Made by a program: the position numbers and the translations under genes
DNA from: an uncultured virus (IMG/VR IMGVR_UViG_3300031578_009156)
Lineage: Duplodnaviria > Heunggongvirae > Uroviricota > Caudoviricetes
IMG/VR virus record: IMGVR_UViG_3300031578_009156
Direction: 5' to 3' (one strand)
DNA length: 20,000 nt
The notes under the pieces: model-generated
Database searches by the model: none
What the model saw: the letters and a program-made list of their open reading frames with translations, nothing else
Told to the model about the DNA's origin: nothing
In this document: positions 1,858 to 20,000 of the stretch, one piece after another
How the letters are laid out: every line of letters starts with the position of its first letter
Numbering within the stretch: position 1 is the first letter of the stretch

Positions 1858-3257
1858 TGGGCAAACGAGCACAGAGCGGCACCGACAAAATGGTACCCCA
1901 CAACGAAGAGGCAGAGCAGGCGGTGGTCGGCTCACTGCTGATCGACCCCGAGGCGTTCTACCACGTCCCCTGGCTGAGGGGGGGGGACTTTCACGACCAG
2001 AGGCTCGCCTGGGTGTACGAGGCGGTCCAGGCCCTCCAGGAGCAGCGCAGCCCCGTGGACCTGGTGACCGTGTGCGATGAATTAGAGCGGCGCGACAGAT
2101 TGGAGCAGATCGGCGGGGTGGCCTATCTCACCCACCTGGTCAACGTCGTCCCGAGCGCCATTCACGTCGAGACCTACGGGCGCATCGTGGAGAGGATGGC
2201 GGGCCGGCGGCGCTTGCTCAACGTGGCGAGCAGTCTGGCGCAGTTGGCGTACCAGGATAGTGAGGACTTAGAGGACACACTGGCCCAGGCCGACCGTGTG
2301 TTCACGACCGCGCTGGCACGGAACGGGCACGGGCGGACCTTCACCGCCGGTGACCTGATCGGTCAAGTCTACGATGACGCTCAGATGTACTGCCAGAACC
2401 CGATAAAGGACGGGGAAACCCGATACCTTGACACTGGGTGGCCCGACCTTAACAAGGCGTTGGGTGGGTGGAAGACCGGCCTCTATATCATCATTGCGGT
2501 CCCCCACCTGGGCAAGTCGTGGTTCGTCTTGGACGCGGCAGCCAACGTGGCGAGCAGGGGGGGGCGGGTTCTGTTCTTCCCCCTGGAGATGACAGGCAAG
2601 CAGTTGATCGAGCGGCTCGTTCTGTCCACCGTCCACATCACCGACTACGACTATCAGCGCGGCGCGATACTGGAGGCTCAGTGGCCCGTGTTGGCGGCTC
2701 GGCTGGGCCAGGTCGGGGGGTGGGACCTCACTATAGACGAAGAGGCGGCCACCTTGCAACAGATACGCGCCTCAGTTCAGCGACATCACCGTGAGAAACC
2801 CCTCGACATGGTGGTGATTGATCCTCTGGGCATGATCGAGTTGGGCGGGGCAGGGGCAGAGAATAAGAACCTTGAGTTGGGTGGCGTGAGTCGGGCGCTG
2901 AAACTGCTCGCAAACAGCATAGGTGCTCCGATTCTGGTCCCCCACCACATCAGCGCCAAGAAGGTGGCAGAGCGGTCGAACAAGCGCCCTGAATTGAGTG
3001 ACCCATACCAAACAGGATATGCAGACATTATAGCGGACGTGGTTCTGGGGCTGTACCGTGACGAATTGTACAAACCTGAAACCGCTGCCTGCCACATCAT
3101 GGAAATCCTGGTATTGAAGGATCGGCTGGGAGGAAAAACAAAGGCCCAGGTTGACTTGTTCTTTTCGCTGTACGGGGAACTTCTGTCGGCAGAACGGCGC
3201 GCGGTTCCCGTGTATCTGGAGGGGGTGAGTAATGGAAATGGCAGTAACGGGTATTGA
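1854..3257 (+). CDS. dnaB: Replicative DNA helicase, DnaB family
   Basis: N-terminal PHNEEAEQAVVGSLL, TGWPDLNKALGG, Walker A variant AVPHLGKS, FFPLEM, VVIDP, RPELSD, ADVVLGLYRDELY. Confidence 0.93.
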   Translation: MMGKRAQSGTDKMVPHNEEAEQAVVGSLLIDPEAFYHVPWLRGGDFHDQRLAWVYEAVQALQEQRSPVDLVTVCDELERRDRLEQIGGVAYLTHLVNVVPSAIHVETYGRIVERMAGRRRLLNVASSLAQLAYQDSEDLEDTLAQADRVFTTALARNGHGRTFTAGDLIGQVYDDAQMYCQNPIKDGETRYLDTGWPDLNKALGGWKTGLYIIIAVPHLGKSWFVLDAAANVASRGGRVLFFPLEMTGKQLIERLVLSTVHITDYDYQRGAILEAQWPVLAARLGQVGGWDLTIDEEAATLQQIRASVQRHHREKPLDMVVIDPLGMIELGGAGAENKNLELGGVSRALKLLANSIGAPILVPHHISAKKVAERSNKRPELSDPYQTGYADIIADVVLGLYRDELYKPETAACHIMEILVLKDRLGGKTKAQVDLFFSLYGELLSAERRAVPVYLEGVSNGNGSNGY

Positions 3258-5375: not shown

Positions 5376-5666
5376 GTGACTGAAGATACCAACGAGGCGC
5401 GGCGGCTGTTGCGTGATGCAGATCTCCGACAAGCTCTCTACACGTTGATGTGGGAACGCTATCAAAAAGGGAAGGCGCGCACAGAGCCGTGCGGCATATT
5501 GAGTGACGAGATGCTGTTGGGCGAATTGCGTCGCATCTTGGGTGGCGGCAGCCCGTCCATAACGGAACGGCTGACGAACCTGACCATGTACGTGCTCGCT
5601 GGCTCAGTGGCAGCGCTGATCCTGGCGGGCGTGGTGCGGCTGGTGGGGCTGATCCTGGGGCTGTAA
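5376..5666 (+). CDS. Small membrane protein, C-terminal TM helix
   Basis: GGAGG RBS; hydrophobic tail MYVLAGSVAALILAGVVRLVGLILGL. Confidence 0.6.
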   Translation: MTEDTNEARRLLRDADLRQALYTLMWERYQKGKARTEPCGILSDEMLLGELRRILGGGSPSITERLTNLTMYVLAGSVAALILAGVVRLVGLILGL

Positions 5667-6103
5667 TGAAGGGCGTCGGATTGGACGGCAAGTCCCATCT
5701 GGAGGCTGCCTTTTCTACTCTCTGGCACCAGATCGCTCCCGACTCCCCAGAGCCAGAGCACGACGTGACGTTCTATCCTGGCCGTGACTGGCGGGCAGAC
5801 TTCATCTGGAAGCCCCAACTCGTGCTGGTCGAATTGGAGGGGCAGGTCTGGGGGGCGCAGGTGCATTGTCAGGCATGCGGGGCGCTGGTGAAAAAGAGGA
5901 GCAAGGGCGGCAAGTGGTACGCGGTGCGCGAGGCGGGCGGGCGGCACGTCAGGGGCGACGGGTTTCAGAACGACGTGGACAAGTATAACGCGGCAGCCGA
6001 CCTCGGCTACAGGCTTTTCAGGGTGACGGCCAAGATGCTCGAGGAGGACCCCTACAGCATCATAATGACGGTGAAGGAGGCGGTGGAGGATGGGCAGAAG
6101 TGA
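5666..6103 (+). CDS. PD-(D/E)XK / DUF559-Vsr-like endonuclease
   Basis: SHLEAAF, WRADF..VLVELEG, GRH..GFQNDVDKYNAAADLGYRLFRVT. Confidence 0.75.
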   Translation: MKGVGLDGKSHLEAAFSTLWHQIAPDSPEPEHDVTFYPGRDWRADFIWKPQLVLVELEGQVWGAQVHCQACGALVKKRSKGGKWYAVREAGGRHVRGDGFQNDVDKYNAAADLGYRLFRVTAKMLEEDPYSIIMTVKEAVEDGQK

Positions 6104-6115
6104 CTGCTCTCCCCT

Positions 6116-7240
6116 CTAAAGAGGGGAGCTTCTAGGGCTTACACCCAAGCTCGCCAGTCCGCGAGCCAAAATGTTCAGAGACGCATTTAAGTCTCTGTCC
6201 ATTTCCAAACTGCAAAAAGGACAAGAGTGGACACGAACGGACAATGCTTTTTCGACAATCTGACCACAGCGAGAACACATCTTGGTGGTGTTGCGCGGAT
6301 CGACCAGCACACACGAACGACCGGCCCATGCTGCCTTGTACGTCGTGTACTGTACCAGTTGGCCCCACGCCGCATCCGAGATGCTCTTGTTCATGCTGCG
6401 CCAGTTGCCATCTTGCATGTCCTGGATATTCAAGTCCTCGAAGACCACGATCTGAAATTCATCTACCAGGCGTCTGCTGAGTTTGTGCGCAAAGTCGGCA
6501 CGCCGGTTCGCAATGCGCTGGTGGATGTGTTGAATTACCCGCTTGCATCGGGTATGCTCAGGTGTTCCCTTTTCGCACTTGGAGAGCTTGCGCTGTGCCT
6601 TGGCAAGCGCCTTTTCGTCCTTGCGGAAAAAACGCGGGTTGGCGATCATCTCGCCGGTGGACAGGGTCGCGAATTTTTCAAGTCCCAGGTCGATGCCAAT
6701 GACATTGGGAACTGGGGGCAAAGGAATGGACTCAACCTCACAGGAAAAGCAGGCATACCAATTACCCAAGGCGTCGCGCCTGACAGTGAGCGTCTTGATT
6801 TTACCCTCAATAGGGCGATGCAATCTGATCTTGACGTTGCCGATCTTGGAAAGATAGAGTCGTTCATCACTGGTGAGCTTGAATCCGCTCTGTGGATAGG
6901 TGAAAGAATCATAGCGGTCCGCTCCGCGAAACCGAGGATAGCCGGGGTTCTCTCCGCTTTCTCTCATGCGCCTGAAAAAGTGCTGGAGTGCCAGATCGAC
7001 ACGGGTTTGCGCATTTTGCAGACACTGCGAGAAAGCGTTCGAGAGTTCAGGCTTTTCCTGTTTCCATCTGGTGAGAAGTTTGTTTGTGTCGAACAGAGAC
7101 AACGACATCTGTTGTTCTTGCCATGCACCACGCCGCACCTCAAGAGTCTTATTGTAGACCCACCGACAAGCGTCGAGAGATACCTGCATGGCTTTGCGTT
7201 GGGCTCGGGTTGGATAGAGTCTGAACCGGAACGTCTTCAT
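6116..7240 (-). CDS. tnpB: RNA-guided endonuclease TnpB
   Basis: MKTFRFRLYPT HTH, RuvC-I GIDLG, RuvC-II FEDL, Zn finger CSRC/CPFC, RuvC-III DRDLNAS. Confidence 0.95.
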   Translation of the reverse strand: MKTFRFRLYPTRAQRKAMQVSLDACRWVYNKTLEVRRGAWQEQQMSLSLFDTNKLLTRWKQEKPELSNAFSQCLQNAQTRVDLALQHFFRRMRESGENPGYPRFRGADRYDSFTYPQSGFKLTSDERLYLSKIGNVKIRLHRPIEGKIKTLTVRRDALGNWYACFSCEVESIPLPPVPNVIGIDLGLEKFATLSTGEMIANPRFFRKDEKALAKAQRKLSKCEKGTPEHTRCKRVIQHIHQRIANRRADFAHKLSRRLVDEFQIVVFEDLNIQDMQDGNWRSMNKSISDAAWGQLVQYTTYKAAWAGRSCVLVDPRNTTKMCSRCGQIVEKALSVRVHSCPFCSLEMDRDLNASLNILARGLASLGVSPRSSPL

Positions 7241-7246
7241 GGCTCT

Positions 7247-7275
7247 ATTGTATCACGTATTAAGGCAGGTGTCAA
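7247..7275 (-). promoter_or_regulatory. Sigma70 promoter for a probably leaderless tnpB mRNA
   Basis: Minus strand TTGACA-N17-TACAAT, ending 6 nt before the ATG. Confidence 0.7.
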
Positions 7276-8521: not shown

Positions 8522-8642
8522 GGGGGTGCTTGGCTTCGACGGGGGGCGGTGTGGTTGGTAGGTGAAAAGGCCCATTGAACGACACCGAAGGCCACGGATT
8601 GACAAACTCCGGACATGGGTTCAATTCCCATCACCTCCACTA
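8522..8642 (+). ncRNA. Miniature tmRNA-like RNA (tRNA-like domain only)
   Basis: 5' GGGGGTGCTTGGCTTCGACGGGG and 3' CTCCGGACATGGGTTCAATTCCCATCACCTCCA match tmRNA termini; acceptor stem has G3.U70 and A73; only ~120 nt long. Confidence 0.75.
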
Positions 8643-8853: not shown

Positions 8854-8881
8854 TTGACAAATCGCCAGACTATGGTATACT
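8854..8881 (+). promoter_or_regulatory. Sigma70 promoter upstream of the TnpB-CRISPR locus
   Basis: TTGACA-N16-TATACT with extended -10 TG. Confidence 0.75.
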
Positions 8882-8886
8882 ATACA

Positions 8887-9032
8887 TTGTCACACGCATA
8901 GAGGCGGGCGTTTTGCTTTAGTAGCCGTCTCACAACTTCAAAGGTAAGTTGGGCAAAGCGCCCTCATTATGGTGGACTCGCGTCCCGCTGTGCGTGTGAC
9001 AACGACGGCATACCATGATGGGGGCGCTTTGC
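8887..9032 (+). promoter_or_regulatory. Structured 5' leader with alternative helices (c4/CI-antisense-like switch)
   Basis: Helix A 8887-8901/8988-9002; crossing 21-bp helix B 8953-8973/9012-9032 covers the initiation region. Confidence 0.6.
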
Positions 9033-9033
9033 T

Positions 9034-10233
9034 ATGAAGGTTCTCAGAGCCTACAAGACAGAGCTTGATCCAACGAACAAGCAGTGCACATGGTTCATGC
9101 GATGTGCGGGCGCTGCCAGGTTCGTGTATAACTGGGCGCTGGCCGACCGCAAGGAGCGATGGGAACAGGGCCAGCAAAACACGAACTTGTATGAGCAAAA
9201 ACGGCGATTCAATGCCCTGAAACGCGAGCAGTGGCCGTGGCTTTATGATGTGCCTTACACCCTGCAAGATGCTGCCTTTGTCAACTTAGATACTGCTTAC
9301 CAGAACTTCTTTCGACGTGTGAAGCAAGGCCAGGAAAAAGTCGGCTTCCCCAAGTTCAAATCCCGTAAGCGCGGTATTGGCTCTTTCATTCTGCGCGGAA
9401 GCATCCACGTAGAGGAAGGTCGAATCAAGTTACCACGTATCGGATGGGTGAGGCTGAAGGAACATGAGTATCTACCCTCCGAGCAACAGGTTAAACTCTT
9501 GTCCGTGACTATCTCGGAGCGAGCAGGCAGGTGGTACGCTTCTGTACAGGTGGAAGAAGATGGGCCAGAACCAGAAACAGGCACGGATATTATCGGTGTG
9601 GACCTGGGCATATCCCACCTGGCAGTATGCTCAGATGGTACAGTATTTGAGAATCCAAAAGCACTTATACAGGCAGAACGTAAACTCGCACGGCTACAGC
9701 GTGAACTAGACCGCAGAACGCAAGGCGGCCAGAACTGGCATAAGACGAAAGCCAAGATCGCGCAGTGTCACGCCAGGATTGCCAATGTCAGGCAGCATGC
9801 GCTTCACCAGGTCAGTCATTACATCACGGCGAAAGTCAAGCCTGAGACAGTAGTGATTGAGGATTTGAACGTGAATGGTATGCTCCAGAATCATCACCTG
9901 GCAAGGGCAATTTCGGATGTGAGTTTTGGCGAACTGAGGAGACAGATCGAGTACAAGGCCAAGTGGCACGGCGTCAAGGTTGTGATAGCCGATAGATTCT
10001 GGCCGTCAAGCAAGGCTTGCTCGCGGTGTGGATGTGTCAAAAGCAACTTGACCTTGGCCGACAGAACCTATACCTGTGATGACTGCGGGTTGGTTATAGA
10101 TCGTGACTTGAACGCGGCGTTAAATCTTGCCGCGCTAGGGAAGGCGAAAACATCGCCGGATTGCCTGGGGAGTTGCGGTGCAGGAAGGCCGCACTGTGAA
10201 CCAGGAACCGAGCAGCCGCTTATCGCGGCATAG
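9034..10233 (+). CDS. tnpB: TnpB / Cas12f-like RNA-guided nuclease, CRISPR-adjacent
   Basis: RAYKTELDP HTH, RuvC-I GVDLG, RuvC-II VIEDL, CSRC/CDDC Zn finger, RuvC-III DRDLNAA; all catalytic residues present; no tnpA. Confidence 0.92.
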   Translation: MKVLRAYKTELDPTNKQCTWFMRCAGAARFVYNWALADRKERWEQGQQNTNLYEQKRRFNALKREQWPWLYDVPYTLQDAAFVNLDTAYQNFFRRVKQGQEKVGFPKFKSRKRGIGSFILRGSIHVEEGRIKLPRIGWVRLKEHEYLPSEQQVKLLSVTISERAGRWYASVQVEEDGPEPETGTDIIGVDLGISHLAVCSDGTVFENPKALIQAERKLARLQRELDRRTQGGQNWHKTKAKIAQCHARIANVRQHALHQVSHYITAKVKPETVVIEDLNVNGMLQNHHLARAISDVSFGELRRQIEYKAKWHGVKVVIADRFWPSSKACSRCGCVKSNLTLADRTYTCDDCGLVIDRDLNAALNLAALGKAKTSPDCLGSCGAGRPHCEPGTEQPLIAA

Positions 10234-10245
10234 GTCTCGGATGGC
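10160..10245 (+). ncRNA. Putative omegaRNA/reRNA scaffold overlapping the tnpB 3' end
   Basis: CCTGG..CCAGG, TGCGG..CCGCA and CCGAG..CTCGG helices; GCCTG..GAACCAGGAA pattern resembles TnpB right ends. Confidence 0.5.
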
Positions 10246-10261
10246 ACATTATAATTCTAGT

Positions 10262-10464
10262 GTGCACCCCACGGGCGTGTGGGGGGTTGGTTAGAGGTAC
10301 GGTCACACAATTGCGGTACGATGGTGCACCCCACGGGCGTGTGGGGGGTTGGGTTGACCTGATCCCGACCGACGCGGACAAGTGCGTGCACCCCACGGGC
10401 GTGTGGGGGGTTGGTCGCCCGCGCAGGCTTCCCCAGTGCACCCCACAGGCGCGTGGGTGTTTGG
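10262..10464 (+). CRISPR. CRISPR mini-array, four 29-nt repeats, spacers 33/33/21 nt
   Basis: GTGCACCCCACGGGCGTGTGGGGGGTTGG at 10262, 10324 and 10386; degenerate copy (4 mismatches) at 10436; internal CCCCAC/GTGGGG hairpin; TATAAT at 10250-10255 upstream and terminator downstream. Confidence 0.92.
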
Positions 10465-10495
10465 ACCTGGCCCCCGTGCTTACTTCACTGAGAAG

Positions 10496-10528
10496 CAGGC
10501 TCCGCTATTGCGGGGCCTGTTTTGTTTT
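10496..10528 (+). terminator. Intrinsic terminator after the array
   Basis: CAGGCTCCGC-TATT-GCGGGGCCTG-TTTTGTTTT. Confidence 0.85.
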
Positions 10529-10550
10529 CCCCTATTCCCCTACCCCCTAC

Positions 10551-10651
10551 CCCCAACCTTAACATTTTTGAAAATCCCTGTCAACCTCTTGACAACTGGT
10601 AAGTTATGTGCTATAATGATGCCATACTCAGGACAGGGAGACAGGACAATG
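10551..10651 (+). promoter_or_regulatory. Repeated promoter/operator/RBS cassette, copy 1
   Basis: CCCCAACCTTAACATTT; TTGACA 10589 -N17- TATAAT 10612; ACAACT-N4-AGTTAT; GGACAGGGAGACAGGACAATG. Confidence 0.85.
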
Positions 10652-10987
10652 AACCGCAACGCGAAGGCACTCCAAACGAAGTCGAAGAAGAACCAGGTAC
10701 AGCCCATCGGGCGGGGGGAGTTTATGGTCACCTCCGCAGCCTCTGGCAGCCGATACCTGGTCACTGACCTGGCGGGTGGCGGGCTTCAGTGTACTTGCGA
10801 GTGGAGCAAGTACCACAGGACAGACCTCAAGCCCTGCTCCCACTGTCTGGCGGTAGAAGAATGGTTGGAGCAGGCGGGGAGCCGCAGCCTGAGTTTCTGG
10901 GCTTCTGAGGATAACGCCAAGCGGCAGCATCGGCCGGCGCGGTTGGTGGGGCTGGGACTGTGGGCGACCAGCAGGGTGGCGGCATAA
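10649..10987 (+). CDS. SWIM zinc-finger protein
   Basis: F-V-S...Y-V...CTC-X12-CSH SWIM signature; start at the cassette ATG. Confidence 0.8.
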   Translation: MNRNAKALQTKSKKNQVQPIGRGEFMVTSAASGSRYLVTDLAGGGLQCTCEWSKYHRTDLKPCSHCLAVEEWLEQAGSRSLSFWASEDNAKRQHRPARLVGLGLWATSRVAA

Positions 10988-12816: not shown

Positions 12817-12847
12817 AGGCCCCCACCCGATGGGGGCCTTTTCGTTT
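12817..12847 (+). terminator. Intrinsic terminator
   Basis: AGGCCCCCA-CCCGA-TGGGGGCCT-TTTCGTTT. Confidence 0.85.
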
Positions 12848-12853
12848 CCCTTC

Positions 12854-12956
12854 CCCCAACCTTAACATTTCTGAAACTGACCACCAAACACTTGACAACT
12901 GACAAGTTGTGTGCTATACTATAGGCATACTCAGGACAGGAGACAGAGACAAAATG
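12854..12956 (+). promoter_or_regulatory. Repeated promoter/operator/RBS cassette, copy 2
   Basis: TTGACA 12892 -N17- TATACT 12915; ACAACT-GACA-AGTTGT; GGACAGGAGACAGAGACAAAATG. Confidence 0.85.
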
Positions 12957-14087: not shown

Positions 14088-14116
14088 AGGCCCCCTCCCT
14101 GGGGGTCTTTTCTTTT
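14088..14116 (+). terminator. Intrinsic terminator
   Basis: AGGCCCCC-TCCCT-GGGGGTCT-TTTCTTTT. Confidence 0.85.
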
Positions 14117-14121
14117 CCTTT

Positions 14122-14225
14122 CCCCAACCTTAACATTTTTGAAACTGACCACCAAACCCTTGACAACTAGTCAGTTGTATGCTATACTATTATCATCTTA
14201 GAGGACAGGAGACAGAGACAAAATG
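14122..14225 (+). promoter_or_regulatory. Repeated promoter/operator/RBS cassette, copy 3
   Basis: TTGACA 14160 -N17- TATACT 14183; ACAACT-AGTC-AGTTGT; GGACAGGAGACAGAGACAAAATG. Confidence 0.85.
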
Positions 14226-15781: not shown

Positions 15782-17653
15782 ATGCTAATCTACGAACCGA
15801 GCGGAAGGGCCAGGGAGTATGCGGCGCTGGCCCTCAATGTGTACAAGGGCTGTGAGCATCGGTGTGTCTACTGTCTAGATGGTGACACGCTTGTTCTGAA
15901 GTCGGACTTGTCCGCGGTGTCTTTGCGTACCATAGTCCCTGGTGATGAAATAGTTGGCGTTGCAAACCTGGGGAGTGGTACGACTAATACTCTGAAGTTT
16001 GTTCCGTCCGTAGTTGAGGCAGTTTGGACTGCGCGGAAGCCTGTTTTTGAGATCGAACTGGAAAACGGGATAACTGCAAAGTGCTCAGGTGACCACAGAT
16101 GGCTTACTGATAGGGGCTGGAAGTTCACCACGAATGCGATGGCGGGGACCATTGATCGCGCGCATCTTACGACCAATAATTCAATCAGGCTGGTTTCATC
16201 TCTGGCAATCACTCCCCAGGAGACCGATGACTATAGATTGGGGTACTTGTCTGGTGTAATCAGGGGAGACGGTCATATCGGTGTGCATGGCCCCTATCAC
16301 AGAAGGACAGCAAGACCTAATAGAGCGGTACGTATTTTTGATGAAGTCGTGCACTCTTTTAGTCTCCGCATGAAAGACGTAGCTGCACTGAGAAGGACAG
16401 AAGGCTATCTTTTGTATTTCGGCGTTACTGTGAAGCGCTTTATTTTCAACGATAGCATGGAGGGCATCAGAACTAGTGCAGAGCACACCATAAAATCTAT
16501 TCAACACTTAATCGAATGGCGGGACACATCAGAGTACGCGCGGGGATTCTTGGCTGGCATCTATGATGCGGAAGGCTCCTACAGCCAGGTGATCAGAATT
16601 TCAAACAGTGATCCAGAAATACTGCGGCGGTGCGAAGATGGACTGCGCACTTTTGGATTCGGTTTTGTGTACGATGTTCCACAACAGGCCCCTAACTGTA
16701 TTGTTCACAGTATTCGTTTACAGGGTGGGCGTGCTGAGATTATCAGGTTTGTTCAGTTGGTCAACCCAGCAATTGAGCGCAAGCGAACAATCTCTGGGCA
16801 AACTGTCAAGCAAAGTTCACGGGTGATCGGCATCAAGAACTTGGGCTATGAGGACACGTTATATGATATCCAGACGAGCACTGGGAACTTCATTGCTAAT
16901 GGGATGGTGTCCCACAACTGTTACGCTCCCAGCGCCACCTACAGCAGCCCCACCGACTTCTCCCACCCCAAGACGCGCGGGGCCGACTTCATCCCCAACT
17001 TGTTCCGCGAGGTCTCGCGGTGCCCTGGTCGCGGGCGGCGCGTGCTCCTCTGCTTTACCTGTGACCCATACCAGCCATTCGACGTCGAGGAGGGCATTAC
17101 ACGGCAGGCAATCCATGTTCTGCACGGCGGCGGCTACGCGGTCGAGGTGTTGACCAAGGGCGGCCAGCGGGCACTGCGCGACCTGGACCTGTTCGGGCCA
17201 GGGGATGCTTTCGCAACGACTTTGACCTTGCTGGACGACCTGCGCTCGATGACCTGGGAGCCAGGGGCGGCGCTTCCTGGTGACCGCATCACTACCATCG
17301 AGGCGTTTCACGGGGCGGGGATCGAGACCTGGGTCAGCCTGGAGCCAGTGCTCGACCCAGACACGGCCCTGGAGATCATCCGCCGAACCCACGAATTTGT
17401 AGACCTCTACAAGGTGGGTAAATTGAACTACGAAAACACGCTCCCCGTGCATTTGCGTAGTCTGGTTGACCACATAGACTGGCGGGCGTTCGGGATCGCG
17501 GCGGTGGACCTGCTGCGCTCCCTGGGCAAGCCGTACTACGTCAAGAAGGACCTGGCGGCGTTCCTGCCCCCTGAGTACCAGGCCCTATGCGGGGAGATGC
17601 CCAAGGCGGCCCCCATCCCCCAGCCCCAGGTGGGCCAGATGACCCTATTCTAA
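15782..17653 (+). CDS. Radical SAM protein (SPL/Rv2578c-like) with intein
   Basis: GCEHRCVY|CYA split CX3CX2C, CDPYQP, VLTKG, WEPGA, WVSLEP; 274 aa after splicing. Confidence 0.88.
   Translation: MLIYEPSGRAREYAALALNVYKGCEHRCVYCLDGDTLVLKSDLSAVSLRTIVPGDEIVGVANLGSGTTNTLKFVPSVVEAVWTARKPVFEIELENGITAKCSGDHRWLTDRGWKFTTNAMAGTIDRAHLTTNNSIRLVSSLAITPQETDDYRLGYLSGVIRGDGHIGVHGPYHRRTARPNRAVRIFDEVVHSFSLRMKDVAALRRTEGYLLYFGVTVKRFIFNDSMEGIRTSAEHTIKSIQHLIEWRDTSEYARGFLAGIYDAEGSYSQVIRISNSDPEILRRCEDGLRTFGFGFVYDVPQQAPNCIVHSIRLQGGRAEIIRFVQLVNPAIERKRTISGQTVKQSSRVIGIKNLGYEDTLYDIQTSTGNFIANGMVSHNCYAPSATYSSPTDFSHPKTRGADFIPNLFREVSRCPGRGRRVLLCFTCDPYQPFDVEEGITRQAIHVLHGGGYAVEVLTKGGQRALRDLDLFGPGDAFATTLTLLDDLRSMTWEPGAALPGDRITTIEAFHGAGIETWVSLEPVLDPDTALEIIRRTHEFVDLYKVGKLNYENTLPVHLRSLVDHIDWRAFGIAAVDLLRSLGKPYYVKKDLAAFLPPEYQALCGEMPKAAPIPQPQVGQMTLF
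15872..16918 (+). mobile_element. Intein with LAGLIDADG homing endonuclease (349 aa)
   Basis: N-terminal CLDGDT, block B SGDHRW, YLSGVIRGDG and FLAGIYDAEG, C-terminal YDIQTSTGNFIANGMVSHN|C; AT-richer than flanks. Confidence 0.93.
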
Positions 17654-17770: not shown

Positions 17771-17846
17771 ATGCTCAGTTGGCCGACAGGCAGAGGCGAC
17801 GGCAAGTGAAAGGCCGTTGCCTTTTTGTTATCTGTGGGCTACACAA

Positions 17847-17919
17847 CCGCGAGTCGTCTAGTGGCTCAGGACGCTGGTTGCTCAGACCAGAGACGGGGGT
17901 TCAAGTCCTCCCTCGCGGA
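17847..17919 (+). tRNA. tRNA-Glu(CTC)-like, non-canonical G33
   Basis: Acceptor CCGCGAG/CTCGCGG, D arm GTCTAGTGGCTCAGGAC, anticodon arm CTGGT-TGCTCAG-ACCAG, T arm GGGGG-TTCAAGT-CCTCC; no encoded CCA. Confidence 0.75.
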
Positions 17920-17922
17920 CTT

Positions 17923-19329
17923 ATGGCTAGAATACAGTTGTTCTCAGGCAAGACGCTGGTCGCTGATGCCAGTTTCATCGCCCGCGTTGTCAACAGTGGT
18001 AACTACGACCGCGTAGTTTTGCCCTGCGTTGGCAGTTTCACCGTCCCCGCCGCTGTCGCTGCGGCCGGCTTCCCCCGTGACCGCATCTTCACGTCAGACG
18101 TCTCGATTTACAGCAGCGTCATGGGCTACCTGCTCGACCCAGACAAACGCATCGAGCAGATGGGCCTGGAGCCGTCTGAGGAGGTCGCTTGCTTCGTGGA
18201 GGGGGCTGCTGATGATTTGGACTATGCCGCCGGCGTACTGGTGGCAATCGGCTGGTTGCAGCAGACGCGGGAGACACGCTACCACGCCAACTTGAGGCGC
18301 GAGATCGTCACCCACAGGGCTATCTACCGCGCACAAATACGGGCGGAACTGGAGAAACTGGTAGAGGCTGCCAGCGGTGTTCACTATGAGGACCACGATG
18401 TTAGGGACGTAGTAGCATCGGTCACGGACGATCCCCGCACTTTCCTGTATTTTAACCTGCCAGGGTTCAAGTTCGGCTACACTAAAATGTTCGGACCTGC
18501 TGAGGAGGCGTTCGGCTGGGGCGGGGTGGTGGTCCAGGAGTTCTTGCCGCAATACAGCGGTGAGGTCTACGAGTCGCTGGTCGGCAAGCCCGTCACGGCC
18601 ATGACCTACGTCAGCAGCGGTACGTCGTCCGACCGCATGGAGGAGGTTCCATCTGGCTGGGTGAAGGTCTACGCCAACGTGGCAGATGAGAAAAAGACGG
18701 GCTACCTGGTGACCAACCAACCCCACATGGATACCAGCATACACGCGCCGACCCTCGACCACGACATCCGCCACTTCCCCATATACGATGATGAGGAGAT
18801 CACGCCCGAGACACAGGTCGCTTTCGTGCAAGTGGACGAGCATACCTGTATGTACTACCGCGACCTGTTCGTCCACAGGCTCGGCATCACGAAGGCGGAG
18901 CAGTACTTCCTGATGCTACTCGATGGGCGCGTGGTGACCGCGCTGGGGCTGGCTATGAGAGATTACCGTCTCAATAGTTCAAGTACTTGTGAGTATACTG
19001 GAGAGGTGTTCGGCATCACTAAGACCTCCCGCCGCTACGCCCGCCTGGGCAAACTGTTCATGCTCTGTCTCACGTCGGGTGACTTTAAGCGGCTCCTGCT
19101 GACAGCATACCCATTCACACAATTTAGGGAGCCGCGTGGCATGAGAACGTCATCTATCACGATCCACCCAGAGGGCAAGACGGATCGTGGCGTGATGAAA
19201 CTGATCCACCGCGAGGAGATTGGTGATGGCAGGTTCAAGGTGATTTACCAGGCTGACTTCAGGGATGATACCTGGCCTGAAACTGTGCAGACGTGGCTGC
19301 GAAAGTGGGGAGGCAAGAGCCGTGAGTGA
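17923..19329 (+). CDS. Putative DNA-modification protein: degenerate adenine-MTase fold plus C-terminal GNAT/Mom-like domain
   Basis: VVLPCVGSF (motif I-like), TSDVS, FLYFNLPGF (motif IV-like); C-terminal RRYARLGKL; the upstream TTG start is rejected because it would span the tRNA. Confidence 0.5.
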   Translation: MARIQLFSGKTLVADASFIARVVNSGNYDRVVLPCVGSFTVPAAVAAAGFPRDRIFTSDVSIYSSVMGYLLDPDKRIEQMGLEPSEEVACFVEGAADDLDYAAGVLVAIGWLQQTRETRYHANLRREIVTHRAIYRAQIRAELEKLVEAASGVHYEDHDVRDVVASVTDDPRTFLYFNLPGFKFGYTKMFGPAEEAFGWGGVVVQEFLPQYSGEVYESLVGKPVTAMTYVSSGTSSDRMEEVPSGWVKVYANVADEKKTGYLVTNQPHMDTSIHAPTLDHDIRHFPIYDDEEITPETQVAFVQVDEHTCMYYRDLFVHRLGITKAEQYFLMLLDGRVVTALGLAMRDYRLNSSSTCEYTGEVFGITKTSRRYARLGKLFMLCLTSGDFKRLLLTAYPFTQFREPRGMRTSSITIHPEGKTDRGVMKLIHREEIGDGRFKVIYQADFRDDTWPETVQTWLRKWGGKSRE

Positions 19330-20000
19330 GAAACTACTGGACCTCGGCCAGGGTCTGGAACTGTGGCGCATCGACATTGACACCCTGTTGGAGCAGGACG
19401 AGAACGCCCGCGTTATGTCACGCGCAATGTTCAAACGGCTGGAGGATACCATCGGCAGGGACAAGCGGCTCGGGGCGCTTCCCTTCTGCGCTGCCACCGA
19501 TAAGGGGATCGAGATCGTCTCTGGTCACCACAGGATCAGGGCGGCCAGGGAGGCAGGGTTATCGGAAGTCCACGCCATCGTGGACGTCACGGGCCTGAGC
19601 AAGGACCAGATTCGAGCGAAGCAGTTGGCTCACAATTCAATCTCTGGCGAGGACGACGAACAGGTGCTCGCCAGAATCTACAGCAAGATCGCGGACGTAG
19701 AGGCGCGGTTGGAGTCGTTCATTGACCCGAAGGTGGTCGAGAAGGCAATCCAGAAGGCAAAGGCAATCGCCATGGACCTCAATCTCAGTTACCGCATGGT
19801 AGTGATTACGTTCATGCCCATCGAGTACGACAGATTTGTTGAGGCGGCCGACAAGGTACAACGGCACATCAGCGTGGTCGAGAAGGCAATCCAGAAGGCA
19901 AAGGCAATCGCCATGGACCTCAATCTCAGTTACCGCATGGTAGTGATTACGTTCATGCCCATCGAGTACGACAGATTTGTTGAGGCGGCCGACAAGGTAC
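19322..20000 (+). CDS. ParB/Srx-like N-terminal domain protein, 3'-truncated by window (not in ORF track)
   Basis: Manual translation MSEKLLDLG..NARVMS..EIVSGHHRIRAA..QLAHNSISGEDD; GGGAGG RBS; open to window end. Confidence 0.8.
   Translation, partial: MSEKLLDLGQGLELWRIDIDTLLEQDENARVMSRAMFKRLEDTIGRDKRLGALPFCAATDKGIEIVSGHHRIRAAREAGLSEVHAIVDVTGLSKDQIRAKQLAHNSISGEDDEQVLARIYSKIADVEARLESFIDPKVVEKAIQKAKAIAMDLNLSYRMVVITFMPIEYDRFVEAADKVQRHISVVEKAIQKAKAIAMDLNLSYRMVVITFMPIEYDRFVEAADKV
19733..20000 (+). repeat. Exact tandem duplication, 141-bp period
   Basis: 19874-20000 is identical to 19733-19859. Confidence 0.9.

Follow-up and report, generated by a model that had tools for sequence, protein, structure and literature searches.

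Does a tnpB gene that stands directly upstream of a short CRISPR-like array in a phage genome form one system with that array, or do the two only happen to adjoin? The question is raised by a locus of an uncultured soil virus of the Caudoviricetes (IMG/VR record IMGVR_UViG_3300031578_009156), of which a stretch of 20,000 nucleotides, here called the window, was analyzed. TnpB-sized intermediates between transposons and CRISPR systems, one of them phage-borne, are already published, as the accessible parts of two sources describe (bioRxiv 10.64898/2026.03.27.714800, PMC10691335). According to the available text of Altae-Tran et al. 2023 (PMC10691335), TnpB acquired downstream arrays on many occasions. 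TranC systems (Jin et al., Cell 2025, as reported in the accessible portions of bioRxiv 10.64898/2026.03.27.714800, PMC13565253 and PMC13639567) include CauTranC9 from Caudoviricetes; the same preprint text describes a split omegaRNA for TranC and an active TranC of the 414-aa class from a Caudoviricetes genome. The original prediction was that the window holds a compact phage TnpB-to-Cas12 intermediate with an omegaRNA-like scaffold at the 3' end of the gene, and clade linkage and RNA covariation support it. From the observed anatomy, clade-wide linkage, covariation, catalytic-site conservation and spacer turnover we infer, with a probability of about 0.75, that the locus is an intermediate between transposon and CRISPR system, carried by a phage and of the TranC or type V-U-like kind.

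Anatomy of the locus

All features of the unit lie on the + strand. It opens with a predicted sigma-70-like promoter at 8854..8881 (TTGACA-16-TATACT, 11 of 12 consensus matches), the core of which, CTTGACAAA, is common to the window and to the nearest relative of the locus (L164). A structured 5' leader follows at 8885..9033, in which two long inverted repeats are interleaved (8887-8904 with 8985-9002, and 8953-8973 with 9012-9032). The 3' inverted repeat covers the ribosome-binding site and stops 1 nt short of the ATG, and the leader folds with a minimum free energy of -68.8 kcal/mol (z -5.3). By eye, the leader of L164 has a like arrangement with a different sequence. The promoter and leader that had been ascribed to tnpB are thus borne out as predicted elements. 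At its far end the unit is closed by a terminator-like hairpin with a U-rich tail at about 10492-10529 (hairpin ~10492-10523). Folding, with 14 pairs and the U-rich run, favors the terminator claimed there, but a consensus scan listed none at the unit.

The tnpB gene (9034..10233) encodes a protein of 399 aa, predicted to be an ISDra2-like RNA-guided nuclease with an intact RuvC triad (D190, E276 and D356) and an intact CxxC...CxxC zinc ribbon. The three acidic residues align with the ISDra2 TnpB motifs GVDVGI, GTEHL and HDRDENAALN. Pfam placed HTH_OrfB_IS605, OrfB_IS605 (RuvC) and Cas12f1-like_TNB on the protein (E 8.6e-18, 1.4e-26 and 1.1e-22, respectively), and PHROG 506 was matched at E 2e-120. 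In a PDB sequence search, ISDra2 TnpB (8h1j/8bf8) was matched over residues 5-367 at E 6e-65, whereas Cas12f chains reached only E 8e-10 to 4e-4. The solved LaTranC resembles the protein only in the C-terminal RuvC and zinc ribbon (residues 242-369, E 5e-23). The triad and the four zinc-ribbon cysteines were retained in all 37 rows of the clade described below. An intact RuvC D-E-D in a 399-aa TnpB, as originally read from the sequence, therefore stands. Identity as a Cas12f (type V-F) was rejected, with neither close sequence kinship nor a tracrRNA-type anti-repeat.

Among the 25 window ORFs scanned, no member of the tnpA, cas1, cas2 or cas6 families was detected, in agreement with the original prediction, and no transposon ends were recognizable around tnpB. 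The usual transposon context, consisting of tnpA, left and right ends and a single flank guide, is not what surrounds this gene: the window RNA enters an array and not a flank. A second TnpB, 33% identical and overlooked earlier, lies on the opposite strand 1.8 kb upstream (6116-7240); it is a canonical element with its own omegaRNA end.

The array begins 28 bp past the tnpB stop codon with repeat 1 (10262..10290), a 29-nt self-folding hairpin (CCCCAC/GTGGGG) with the tail GGTTGG, whose hairpin also appears in the consensus structure of the clade. Repeat 2 (10324..10352) and repeat 3 (10386..10414) are identical to it, and repeat 4 (10436..10464) is degenerate, differing at 4 of 29 positions like the old end of a CRISPR array. 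Spacer 1 (10291..10323) and spacer 2 (10353..10385) are each 33 nt long, and spacer 3 (10415..10435) is truncated to only 21 nt. The four repeats are thus where they had been placed. Repeats like repeat 4 flank other spacers of 31-32 nt, at low depth, in the same soils. Duplexes between the repeat and the upstream 260 nt or the leader did not surpass those obtained with shuffled repeats (z -0.84 to +1.09), which confirms the earlier impression that no convincing anti-repeat is present. None of the CRISPR-DR families of Rfam reached E 10 on the array.

The scaffold RNA and its linkage to the array

Between tnpB and the array, and overlapping the last ~100 nt of the gene, lies an omegaRNA-like scaffold (10132..10261), which was folded with RNAalifold on an alignment of 18 clade members. 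It consists of a 5' hairpin, a long-range CCTGG/CCAGG helix that encloses a stem-loop, a conserved CTGTGAACCAGGAA, a hairpin CCGAG...CTCGG and a small hairpin. The small hairpin (10244-10265) was recognized in the sequences themselves; bases 1-4 of repeat 1 enter its 3' arm, and the RNAalifold consensus does not include it. Since compensatory changes occur in 25 of the 33 predicted pairs among the 18 members, the scaffold is, on comparative grounds, a real structured RNA under selection at the RNA level. The Rfam model Transposase-2 (RF03015) matched 10198-10266 with 30.1 bits (E 0.0012), below its gathering score of 42.7. A simple origin of the repeat by duplication of the terminal hairpin of the closest canonical omegaRNAs was rejected; the sister lineages end differently, in ...TCGG-ACAACGG.

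The tie between nuclease, scaffold and array was followed in a tree of 105 distinct TnpB relatives, built with a quick method under LG+G4. One clade of 37 rows (SH-aLRT 100) holds 22 of the 23 rows with at least two downstream repeats and all nine single-repeat rows, the remainder being three rows with too little downstream DNA and three others. In 31 of the 34 evaluable clade rows, one to eight repeats are fused to the covarying omegaRNA scaffold, and the clade contains none of the 46 rows that a crude motif test labels as having a canonical transposon-type RNA end. L219, also outside, has a repeat that is a different duplication with a 56-nt period. The nearest relative, L164 (83% identity), carries two repeats of the same kind, in the same place and behind the same scaffold as the window; L165 (80% identity) has the same scaffold and at least one repeat before its contig ends, and codon 17 of its tnpB is an in-frame TAA. 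The expectation, set in advance, that close homologs should flank the same repeat was thus confirmed by L164, L165 and the clade as a whole. The junction of scaffold and repeat is conserved from 51% to 83% protein identity, in AT-rich and in GC-rich genomes, and the repeats vary in step with TnpB lineages. Database names for these relatives, where any are given, read 'putative transposase'.

The scaffold, then the small hairpin, always precedes the first repeat in clade loci, and scaffold and array remain joined also in loci that lack a tnpB immediately before them. The scaffold and three repeats of L242 have a promoter of their own and precede tnpB, and L310, a 14-kb contig fragment without tnpB, has the scaffold and seven repeats. 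No array without scaffold was found among the loci examined. In the true single-repeat relatives L176 and L169, the repeat is followed almost immediately by a terminator-like hairpin, and these loci resemble arrays without spacers more than omegaRNAs with a single guide. The sister lineages are mobile, as near-identical copies with differing flanks reveal (L247, L248, L249 and L200).

Near matches of the locus were absent from GenBank phages, and neither the exact window repeat nor the subclade repeat pattern was found in IMG/VR. A search of sequencing runs listed no RNA run that contains the locus. A repeat-only pattern search of IMG/VR returned the scaffold-plus-array of L310, along with L309 and L311, which are chance single matches.

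Spacer turnover and the origin of the spacers

The spacers turn over within the clade. No spacer is common to the window and L164 at 83% protein identity, and L218 and L221 have different spacers beside near-identical TnpB and scaffold. When 84 spacers and tails were compared with all loci by local BLAST, one spacer was common to the twin arrays L001 and L163, a stretch behind the L161 array matched omegaRNA scaffolds in L170, L238 and L161 itself, and two 15-nt matches (L243, L210) were at chance level.

Spacer 1 has a candidate protospacer in the same soil metagenomes. Its matches, one contig each in the metagenomes X2, X5 and X6, are limited to 10290-10322, each being bounded on either side by at least 255 letters of unlike sequence. 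The 5' flank of the candidate, which was read from loose contig ends and is a single case, ends in AA before a shared G (AAG), this G being the last base of the repeat. An AAG PAM whose G is shared by the last base of the repeat is the habit of type I-E systems. For spacers 1 and 2, no targets were found in GenBank phages (one chance-level match, E 0.3), in IMG/VR or in the window; plasmids held no targets of the window array, and phages held none of the L162 and L250 arrays.

The distance between repeat starts in the clade is 61 or 62 nt in 45 of 51 cases (61 nt in 30, 62 nt in 15), and in the type I-E array of E. coli K-12 (L312) it is 61 nt eight times and 62 nt twice. The clade repeat profile found no match in the E. 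coli K-12 I-E repeats. The class 1-like appearance originally noted for the repeat therefore holds in geometry but, as far as the E. coli repeats show, not in sequence. A class 1 (I-E-like) Cas1-Cas2 of the host is suggested by the tight 61-62-nt spacing, by decay at the far end of the array and by the one AAG-flanked target, and the spacers were probably written by such a host integrase. No Cas1 family member was detected in five clade viral contigs, two of them rated complete, and the control was found in 7 of 14 genomes. A search of 805 distinct genomes (401 from each of two phyla and three further), with up to three mismatches allowed, did not recover the window repeat.

Proposed working, alternatives and known systems

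In the intermediate that we favor, a TnpB of ordinary size and fold, free of transposon context, would be expressed from its own promoter in one transcription unit with its guides. The transcript would run from the tnpB mRNA through the 3' omegaRNA scaffold into 29-nt hairpin repeats alternating with 32-33-nt spacers, and the scaffold would be bound by TnpB. The repeat hairpin and its conserved TTGG tail may replace the guide-proximal end of the omegaRNA, and each spacer that follows a repeat could then be a guide. Spacer 1 would be joined to the scaffold in cis and, as described for TranC, later spacers would act as separate crRNAs that rely on the scaffold in trans. The loaded nuclease would cut matching DNA of competing mobile elements. 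The phage would not make its own spacers; a class 1 (I-E-like) Cas1-Cas2 of the host would provide them in trans. Against the proposed intermediate stand the lack of any anti-repeat that would tie the repeat to the scaffold, and the class 1 geometry of the array, by which host Cascade might also use the crRNAs. The single candidate protospacer, the otherwise negative target searches, the empty look of the single-repeat loci L176 and L169 and the in-frame TAA in the tnpB of L165 also count against it.

A tentative extension, which we consider possible at best, makes the locus a hybrid across CRISPR classes. The omegaRNA end of the clade would have been shaped as an I-E repeat, and I-E Cas1-Cas2 of the host would write AAG-selected spacers of 32-33 nt behind the phage scaffold, thereby arming a miniature class 2 nuclease of the phage, perhaps with crRNAs shared with Cascade. 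In a related but unlikely variant, an array written by host I-E Cas1-Cas2 would yield crRNAs that serve both host Cascade and phage TnpB. The I-E geometry and PAM hints, next to the clade-wide linkage of TnpB and scaffold, fit such dual use; against it, neither host nor host array was found in the genomes searched, the conserved TTGG tail has no testable counterpart in the type I-E handle, and the PAM evidence is one case. Still less probable is the reading that the phage loads host Cascade against rival elements by means of a mini-array of class 1 (I-E or IV-like), next to which tnpB stands by chance. Virus-borne mini-arrays have reportedly been described, by Medvedeva et al. in 2019. A 29-nt self-folding repeat, spacers of 32-33 nt, the period of the E. 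coli I-E array, the AAG at the sole candidate protospacer, the negative anti-repeat search and the tnpB-free L310 fragment with scaffold and array all agree with a Cascade mini-array. The scaffold nevertheless accompanies the array in every locus examined, L242 and L310 included, the clade profile misses the E. coli I-E repeats, the window repeat is absent from the 805 genomes searched (up to three mismatches), and subclade repeats were not found in IMG/VR. The linkage of TnpB and covarying scaffold to the array is clade-wide and of one origin, and because the array-bearing rows gather in one clade (SH-aLRT 100), incidental adjacency, which had been offered as the alternative, is not supported.

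The two remaining explanations treat the locus as a transposon and are both very improbable. Spacers of such even length indicate the ruler of an integrase rather than captured flanks, which speaks against a selfish array of several omegaRNA guides with which a TnpB element would home to several sites and take no part in defense or competition, even if the available text of PMC10691335 mentions omegaRNA arrays among TnpB relatives. Neither transposon ends nor tnpA accompany the gene, and no spacer matches within the window; elsewhere only the twin arrays L001 and L163 share one. The least probable is a mobile TnpB that recently landed beside a pre-existing array in a functionless arrangement. 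Such elements do insert in this phage, as the canonical TnpB 1.8 kb away attests, and the sister lineages, with their differing flanks, are mobile. A recent landing is already contradicted by clade-wide conservation, with the same junction retained from 51% to 83% protein identity in AT-rich and GC-rich genomes, with repeats that co-vary with the TnpB lineages and with no tnpA in the window. Also dropped was the idea that TnpB takes the repeat as its guide and so attacks host arrays; no constant TAM could precede the repeats.

As an intermediate, the locus would be a natural snapshot of the start of type V CRISPR systems, with no added domains and with the scaffold still in the 3' end of the gene, on a branch whose loci range from a single repeat without spacers to arrays of eight. 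Should the AAG flank and the class 1-like spacing hold, the RNA end of a transposon would have been taken over by an existing adaptation machine, and the hybrid, if true, would give one concrete route from a transposon guide RNA to a growing CRISPR array. The predicted nucleases of 355-400 aa, with short 29-nt crRNA handles, are also candidates for compact editors.

By the published descriptions available to us, TranC systems share with the locus a TnpB-sized nuclease without added domains, a downstream CRISPR-like array without cas1, cas2 and cas4, a retained omegaRNA-derived scaffold, carriage by phage (CauTranC9) and short arrays (3-20 repeats reported for TranC, 1-8 in the window clade). 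They are set apart, again by description, by repeats of 32-38 nt in TranC clades 3, 9, 11 and 20 versus 29 nt here, and the window locus differs in its lack of an anti-repeat, in a scaffold joined in cis to the first repeat and in the class 1-like period of 61-62 nt. The likeness to LaTranC is C-terminal only, whereas ISDra2 TnpB is matched end to end. Type V-U* systems (V-U6 to V-U45, 40 branches, to which the window clade was compared by description in the accessible part of PMC10691335) likewise encode a TnpB-like protein followed by a conserved array that replaces the omegaRNA guide, and have no further cas genes. ISDra2 TnpB with its omegaRNA (PDB 8h1j, 8bf8/8exa) is the closest natural solved relative, alike in length, domains, catalytic motifs and a scaffold RNA that overlaps the 3' end of the gene, but it has one flank-derived guide, a tnpA partner and transposon ends in place of a spacer array. 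The type I-E array of E. coli K-12 shares the 29-nt hairpin repeat, the 32-33-nt spacers and the period, and the AAG beside the one candidate protospacer, with its G in the last base of the repeat, would fit type I-E as well; the window, in contrast, has no genes for Cascade, Cas3, Cas6e or Cas1-Cas2 among its 25 ORFs, its clade repeat is not recognizably alike in sequence, and its array is fused to a TnpB scaffold. Cas12p, the Cas12 hacker, is another phage-borne, small and early-branching type V effector with an array and without adaptation genes, as far as the accessible text of bioRxiv 10.1101/2025.01.20.633832 describes it, but it measures 500-700 aa and uses tracrRNA with crRNA and a thioredoxin cofactor, whereas the window protein, at 399 aa, is TnpB-like throughout.

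The tnpB-array unit and its scaffold RNA

We find that the best explanation of the unit is a putative TnpB-dependent guide array, because the array is linked to one TnpB lineage, the scaffold RNA covaries, the active site is conserved and the spacers turn over. The surrounding genes, which encode a DnaB-like helicase, several DNA methyltransferases, ParB-like proteins, a PAPS-reductase-like protein and PHROG-only families, make the window look like part of a phage or other mobile element. ORF and domain searches identified tnpB at 9034-10233 (+ strand), whose 399-aa product has three TnpB domains and matches ISDra2 TnpB from end to end (PDB sequence search, E 6e-65). The ISDra2 catalytic motifs align with D190, E276 and D356, and the active site is kept in 37/37 rows of the clade, the TnpB branch that includes the window's protein. 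Four 29-nt repeats on the + strand start at 10262, 10324, 10386 and 10436, the first of them 28 bp past the tnpB stop codon; spacers 1-3 are 33, 33 and 21 nt long, and repeat 4 differs from the other repeats at four positions. A promoter-like site with 11/12 consensus matches lies at 8854-8881 (+ strand). The original prediction of a nuclease with an intact RuvC D-E-D, its own promoter and a closely following four-repeat array was thus borne out, as was the reported lack of tnpA, cas1, cas2 and cas6, since no tnpA or cas gene was found among the 25 window ORFs scanned. Its closing terminator was recovered in part: folding gave a 14-pair hairpin with a U-rich tail that closes the unit at ~10492-10529 (+ strand), but this hairpin was absent from the consensus terminator scan.

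The tnpB leader (8885-9033) folds well (z -5.3) and holds two interleaved long inverted repeats in the order A5'-B5'-A3'-B3', the second of which spans the ribosome-binding site; a role as a translational switch is possible. Among relatives, an arrangement like it by eye, with a different sequence, occurs at 2868-3000 of locus L164, and locus L165 has no such leader.

An omegaRNA-like scaffold had been proposed at the 3' end of the gene, and covariation supports it. When 18 clade members were aligned over the stretch that starts 62 nt 5' of the conserved CTGTGAACCAGGAA and closes with repeat 1, a common fold of 33 pairs emerged, 25 of them with compensatory changes. The fold comprises a 5' hairpin, a long-range helix of CCTGG with CCAGG (CTCAG/CTGGG, CTTAG/CTAAG and CCTAG/CTAGG in other members), a CCGAG...CTCGG hairpin and the repeat hairpin. 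Rfam Transposase-2 matched below threshold, at 30.1 bits in the window and 34.1 bits in a relative (L204). In sister lineages the RNA stops directly after a CCGA...TCGG hairpin with ACAACGG, followed by divergence. The extra small hairpin and repeat module at the guide-proximal end are therefore acquisitions of the clade. The repeat is self-folding and ends in a near-invariant TTGG. No upstream complement of it was detected in five loci and the window leader (z -0.84 to +1.09 versus shuffled repeats), in agreement with the earlier failure to see an anti-repeat by eye.

Linkage across the TnpB clade

Relatives with their flanks (308 loci) were drawn from IMG/VR, one genome per species, and JGI metagenomes; the best 120 database relatives carry either no name or 'putative transposase'. 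In L164 (83% identity), the same scaffold leads into two 29-nt repeats, and the 32-nt spacer between them is unrelated to those of the window. L165 (80% identity) retains the first repeat before its contig ends; codon 17 of its tnpB (1349-1351) is an in-frame TAA instead of the CAA of the window, so that either the gene is broken or the assembly is wrong. At 52% identity the layout persists in two viral contigs, one AT-rich (L001) and one GC-rich (L006), each carrying a repeat variant of its own.

A tree of 105 distinct relatives (identity of 40% or higher, 330 or more query residues) was constructed using an IQ-TREE quick search under LG+G4, after identical translations were merged (for example, L001 was dropped as equal to L163) and the partial matches L204, L210 and L234 were excluded. 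Repeats were counted using a profile from 15 repeats and a k-mer test for periodic copies; the label 'canonical end', a crude motif test, denotes an RNA ending in ...AACGG and then unrelated flank. The clade (SH-aLRT 100) has 37 rows: 22 with at least two repeats, nine with one, three with too little downstream DNA, three other and none with a canonical end. Outside it, the 68 rows include one with at least two repeats, none with a single repeat, 10 with too little downstream DNA, 11 other and 46 with a canonical end; the sole repeat-bearing row (L219) has a different duplication of 56-nt period. An incidental adjacency of TnpB and array, which the original prediction had offered as an alternative, is not supported, as in this tree repeats of this kind occur in one clade and all 46 canonical ends outside it. 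The check that it proposed, whether close homologs flank the repeat as well, was positive for L164 and L165, and repeats were counted in 31 of the 34 clade rows that could be evaluated.

Four of the nine single-repeat rows are cut by a contig end (L165, L196, L188, L179), and five are truly single (L176, L169, L170, L224, L235). In the clade's 'other' rows, L180 has diverged units discernible by eye, no repeat units were seen in L168, and L242 carries a scaffold and three repeats upstream of tnpB (2600-2950) as a separate unit with its own TTGACA...TATACT promoter. An IMG/VR repeat-pattern scan added L310, with a scaffold and seven 30-nt repeats (2130-2680, - strand); tnpB was not found anywhere in its 14-kb contig, rated 17% complete. 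Based upon the tree counts, L242 and L310, array and scaffold stay together, and the pair follows this TnpB lineage. None of the outcomes that the original prediction named as refuting it was observed.

An FMN riboswitch (100 bits) lies near the single-repeat member L176, at 2707-2874 (- strand). L176 may come from a bacterial chromosome and not from a phage, in which case the clade reaches beyond phages. Downstream arrays with repeats of ~36 nt also occur in the distant TnpB relatives L121 (4260-4676; 37%, Ekhidna) and L150 (4274-4481; 33%, Segatella), apparently independent TnpB-array lineages.

Array geometry, spacer turnover and known systems

Start-to-start distances in the clade are 61 nt in 30/51 cases and 62 nt in 15/51; in the record of the E. 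coli K-12 type I-E array, the distance is 61 nt in eight cases and 62 nt in two. The class 1 character originally ascribed to the repeat therefore stands for the period of 61-62 nt, but the E. coli K-12 repeats give no hit with the clade profile. The original prediction proposed a search for the repeat in host CRISPR loci; at up to three mismatches, the window's repeat was not found in 805 distinct genomes (401 from each of the phyla of genomes G007 and G008, and three others). No Cas1 family match was obtained in five clade viral contigs, two of them rated complete; the control search matched in 7/14 reference genomes. Neither captured flanks nor plain duplication can produce spacers of uniform length, so we infer a ruler from an integrase acting in trans; its figures match class 1 type I-E.

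Spacers differ between the near-identical loci L218 and L221. The locus is present in six soil metagenome runs, and in run X2 8981-10700 is present as one identical contig. Lower-depth contigs in X2 and X5 have other 31-letter inserts between repeat-4-like repeats, and a 26-letter insert of like kind occurs in X7, one of two groundwater runs that each hold a small share of the stretch only. In X2, X5 and X6, one contig apiece aligns over 10290-10322 alone, a segment made up of the final G of repeat 1 and 32 nt of spacer 1, and both of its flanks are unlike the window for at least 255 letters; this sequence is most simply a candidate protospacer. Its 5' flank, a single case, has AA before the shared G, giving AAG. 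An AAG whose G passes into the repeat is typical of type I-E.

Judged by analogy, the window locus is of the same kind as TranC (Jin et al., Cell 2025) and the type V-U candidates. An active TnpB-sized TranC with 38-bp repeats has been reported from a Caudoviricetes genome (bioRxiv 10.64898/2026.03.27.714800), and 40 TnpB branches with downstream arrays have been described (Altae-Tran et al., PMC10691335). LaTranC, a solved TranC, has only distant likeness to the window TnpB by sequence search, and the reported Cas12 hacker is larger, at 500-700 aa versus 399 aa (bioRxiv 10.1101/2025.01.20.633832). Transposon-CRISPR intermediates are themselves already published; the class 1-like ruler and AAG flank may be the novel part.

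Other features of the window

A second TnpB (6097-7275, - strand, 374 aa), 33% identical to the first, has a promoter-like site immediately upstream. Its omegaRNA end is canonical, with a C-rich/G-rich hairpin and an 8-nt tail directly past the stop, then flank; the last three bases of the tail complement the stop codon of ORF 5666-6103, which runs towards the element, and the element therefore sits at the very end of that gene. A 121-nt tmRNA-like gene (8522-8642; Rfam, 65.9 bits) has an acceptor stem and T arm, with 62 nt where the model has 314, and was not called by ARAGORN. No integrase was detected close by, so the gene may encode a minimal tmRNA-like RNA of the phage and not mark an attachment site.

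An intergenic cassette of ~90 nt, CCCCAACCTTAACATTT...TTGACAACT...TATAAT/TATACT, occurs at 10530-10619, 12833-12922 and 14101-14190 and resembles a strong promoter module that the phage has in several copies. The right border of the tnpB-array unit is marked by the first copy, the core of which is covered two to three times as deeply as its surroundings in the soil runs. An exact 127-nt direct repeat with 141-nt spacing (19733-20000) runs into the window end. The 623-aa ORF at 15782-17653, with intein splicing and LAGLIDADG domains in a weak radical-SAM-like frame, is by its predicted domains an intein-bearing phage gene. Finally, tRNA-Glu(CTC) (17847-17920) falls within ORF 17779-19329 as called mechanically; this methylase/GNAT-like gene therefore probably starts downstream of it.
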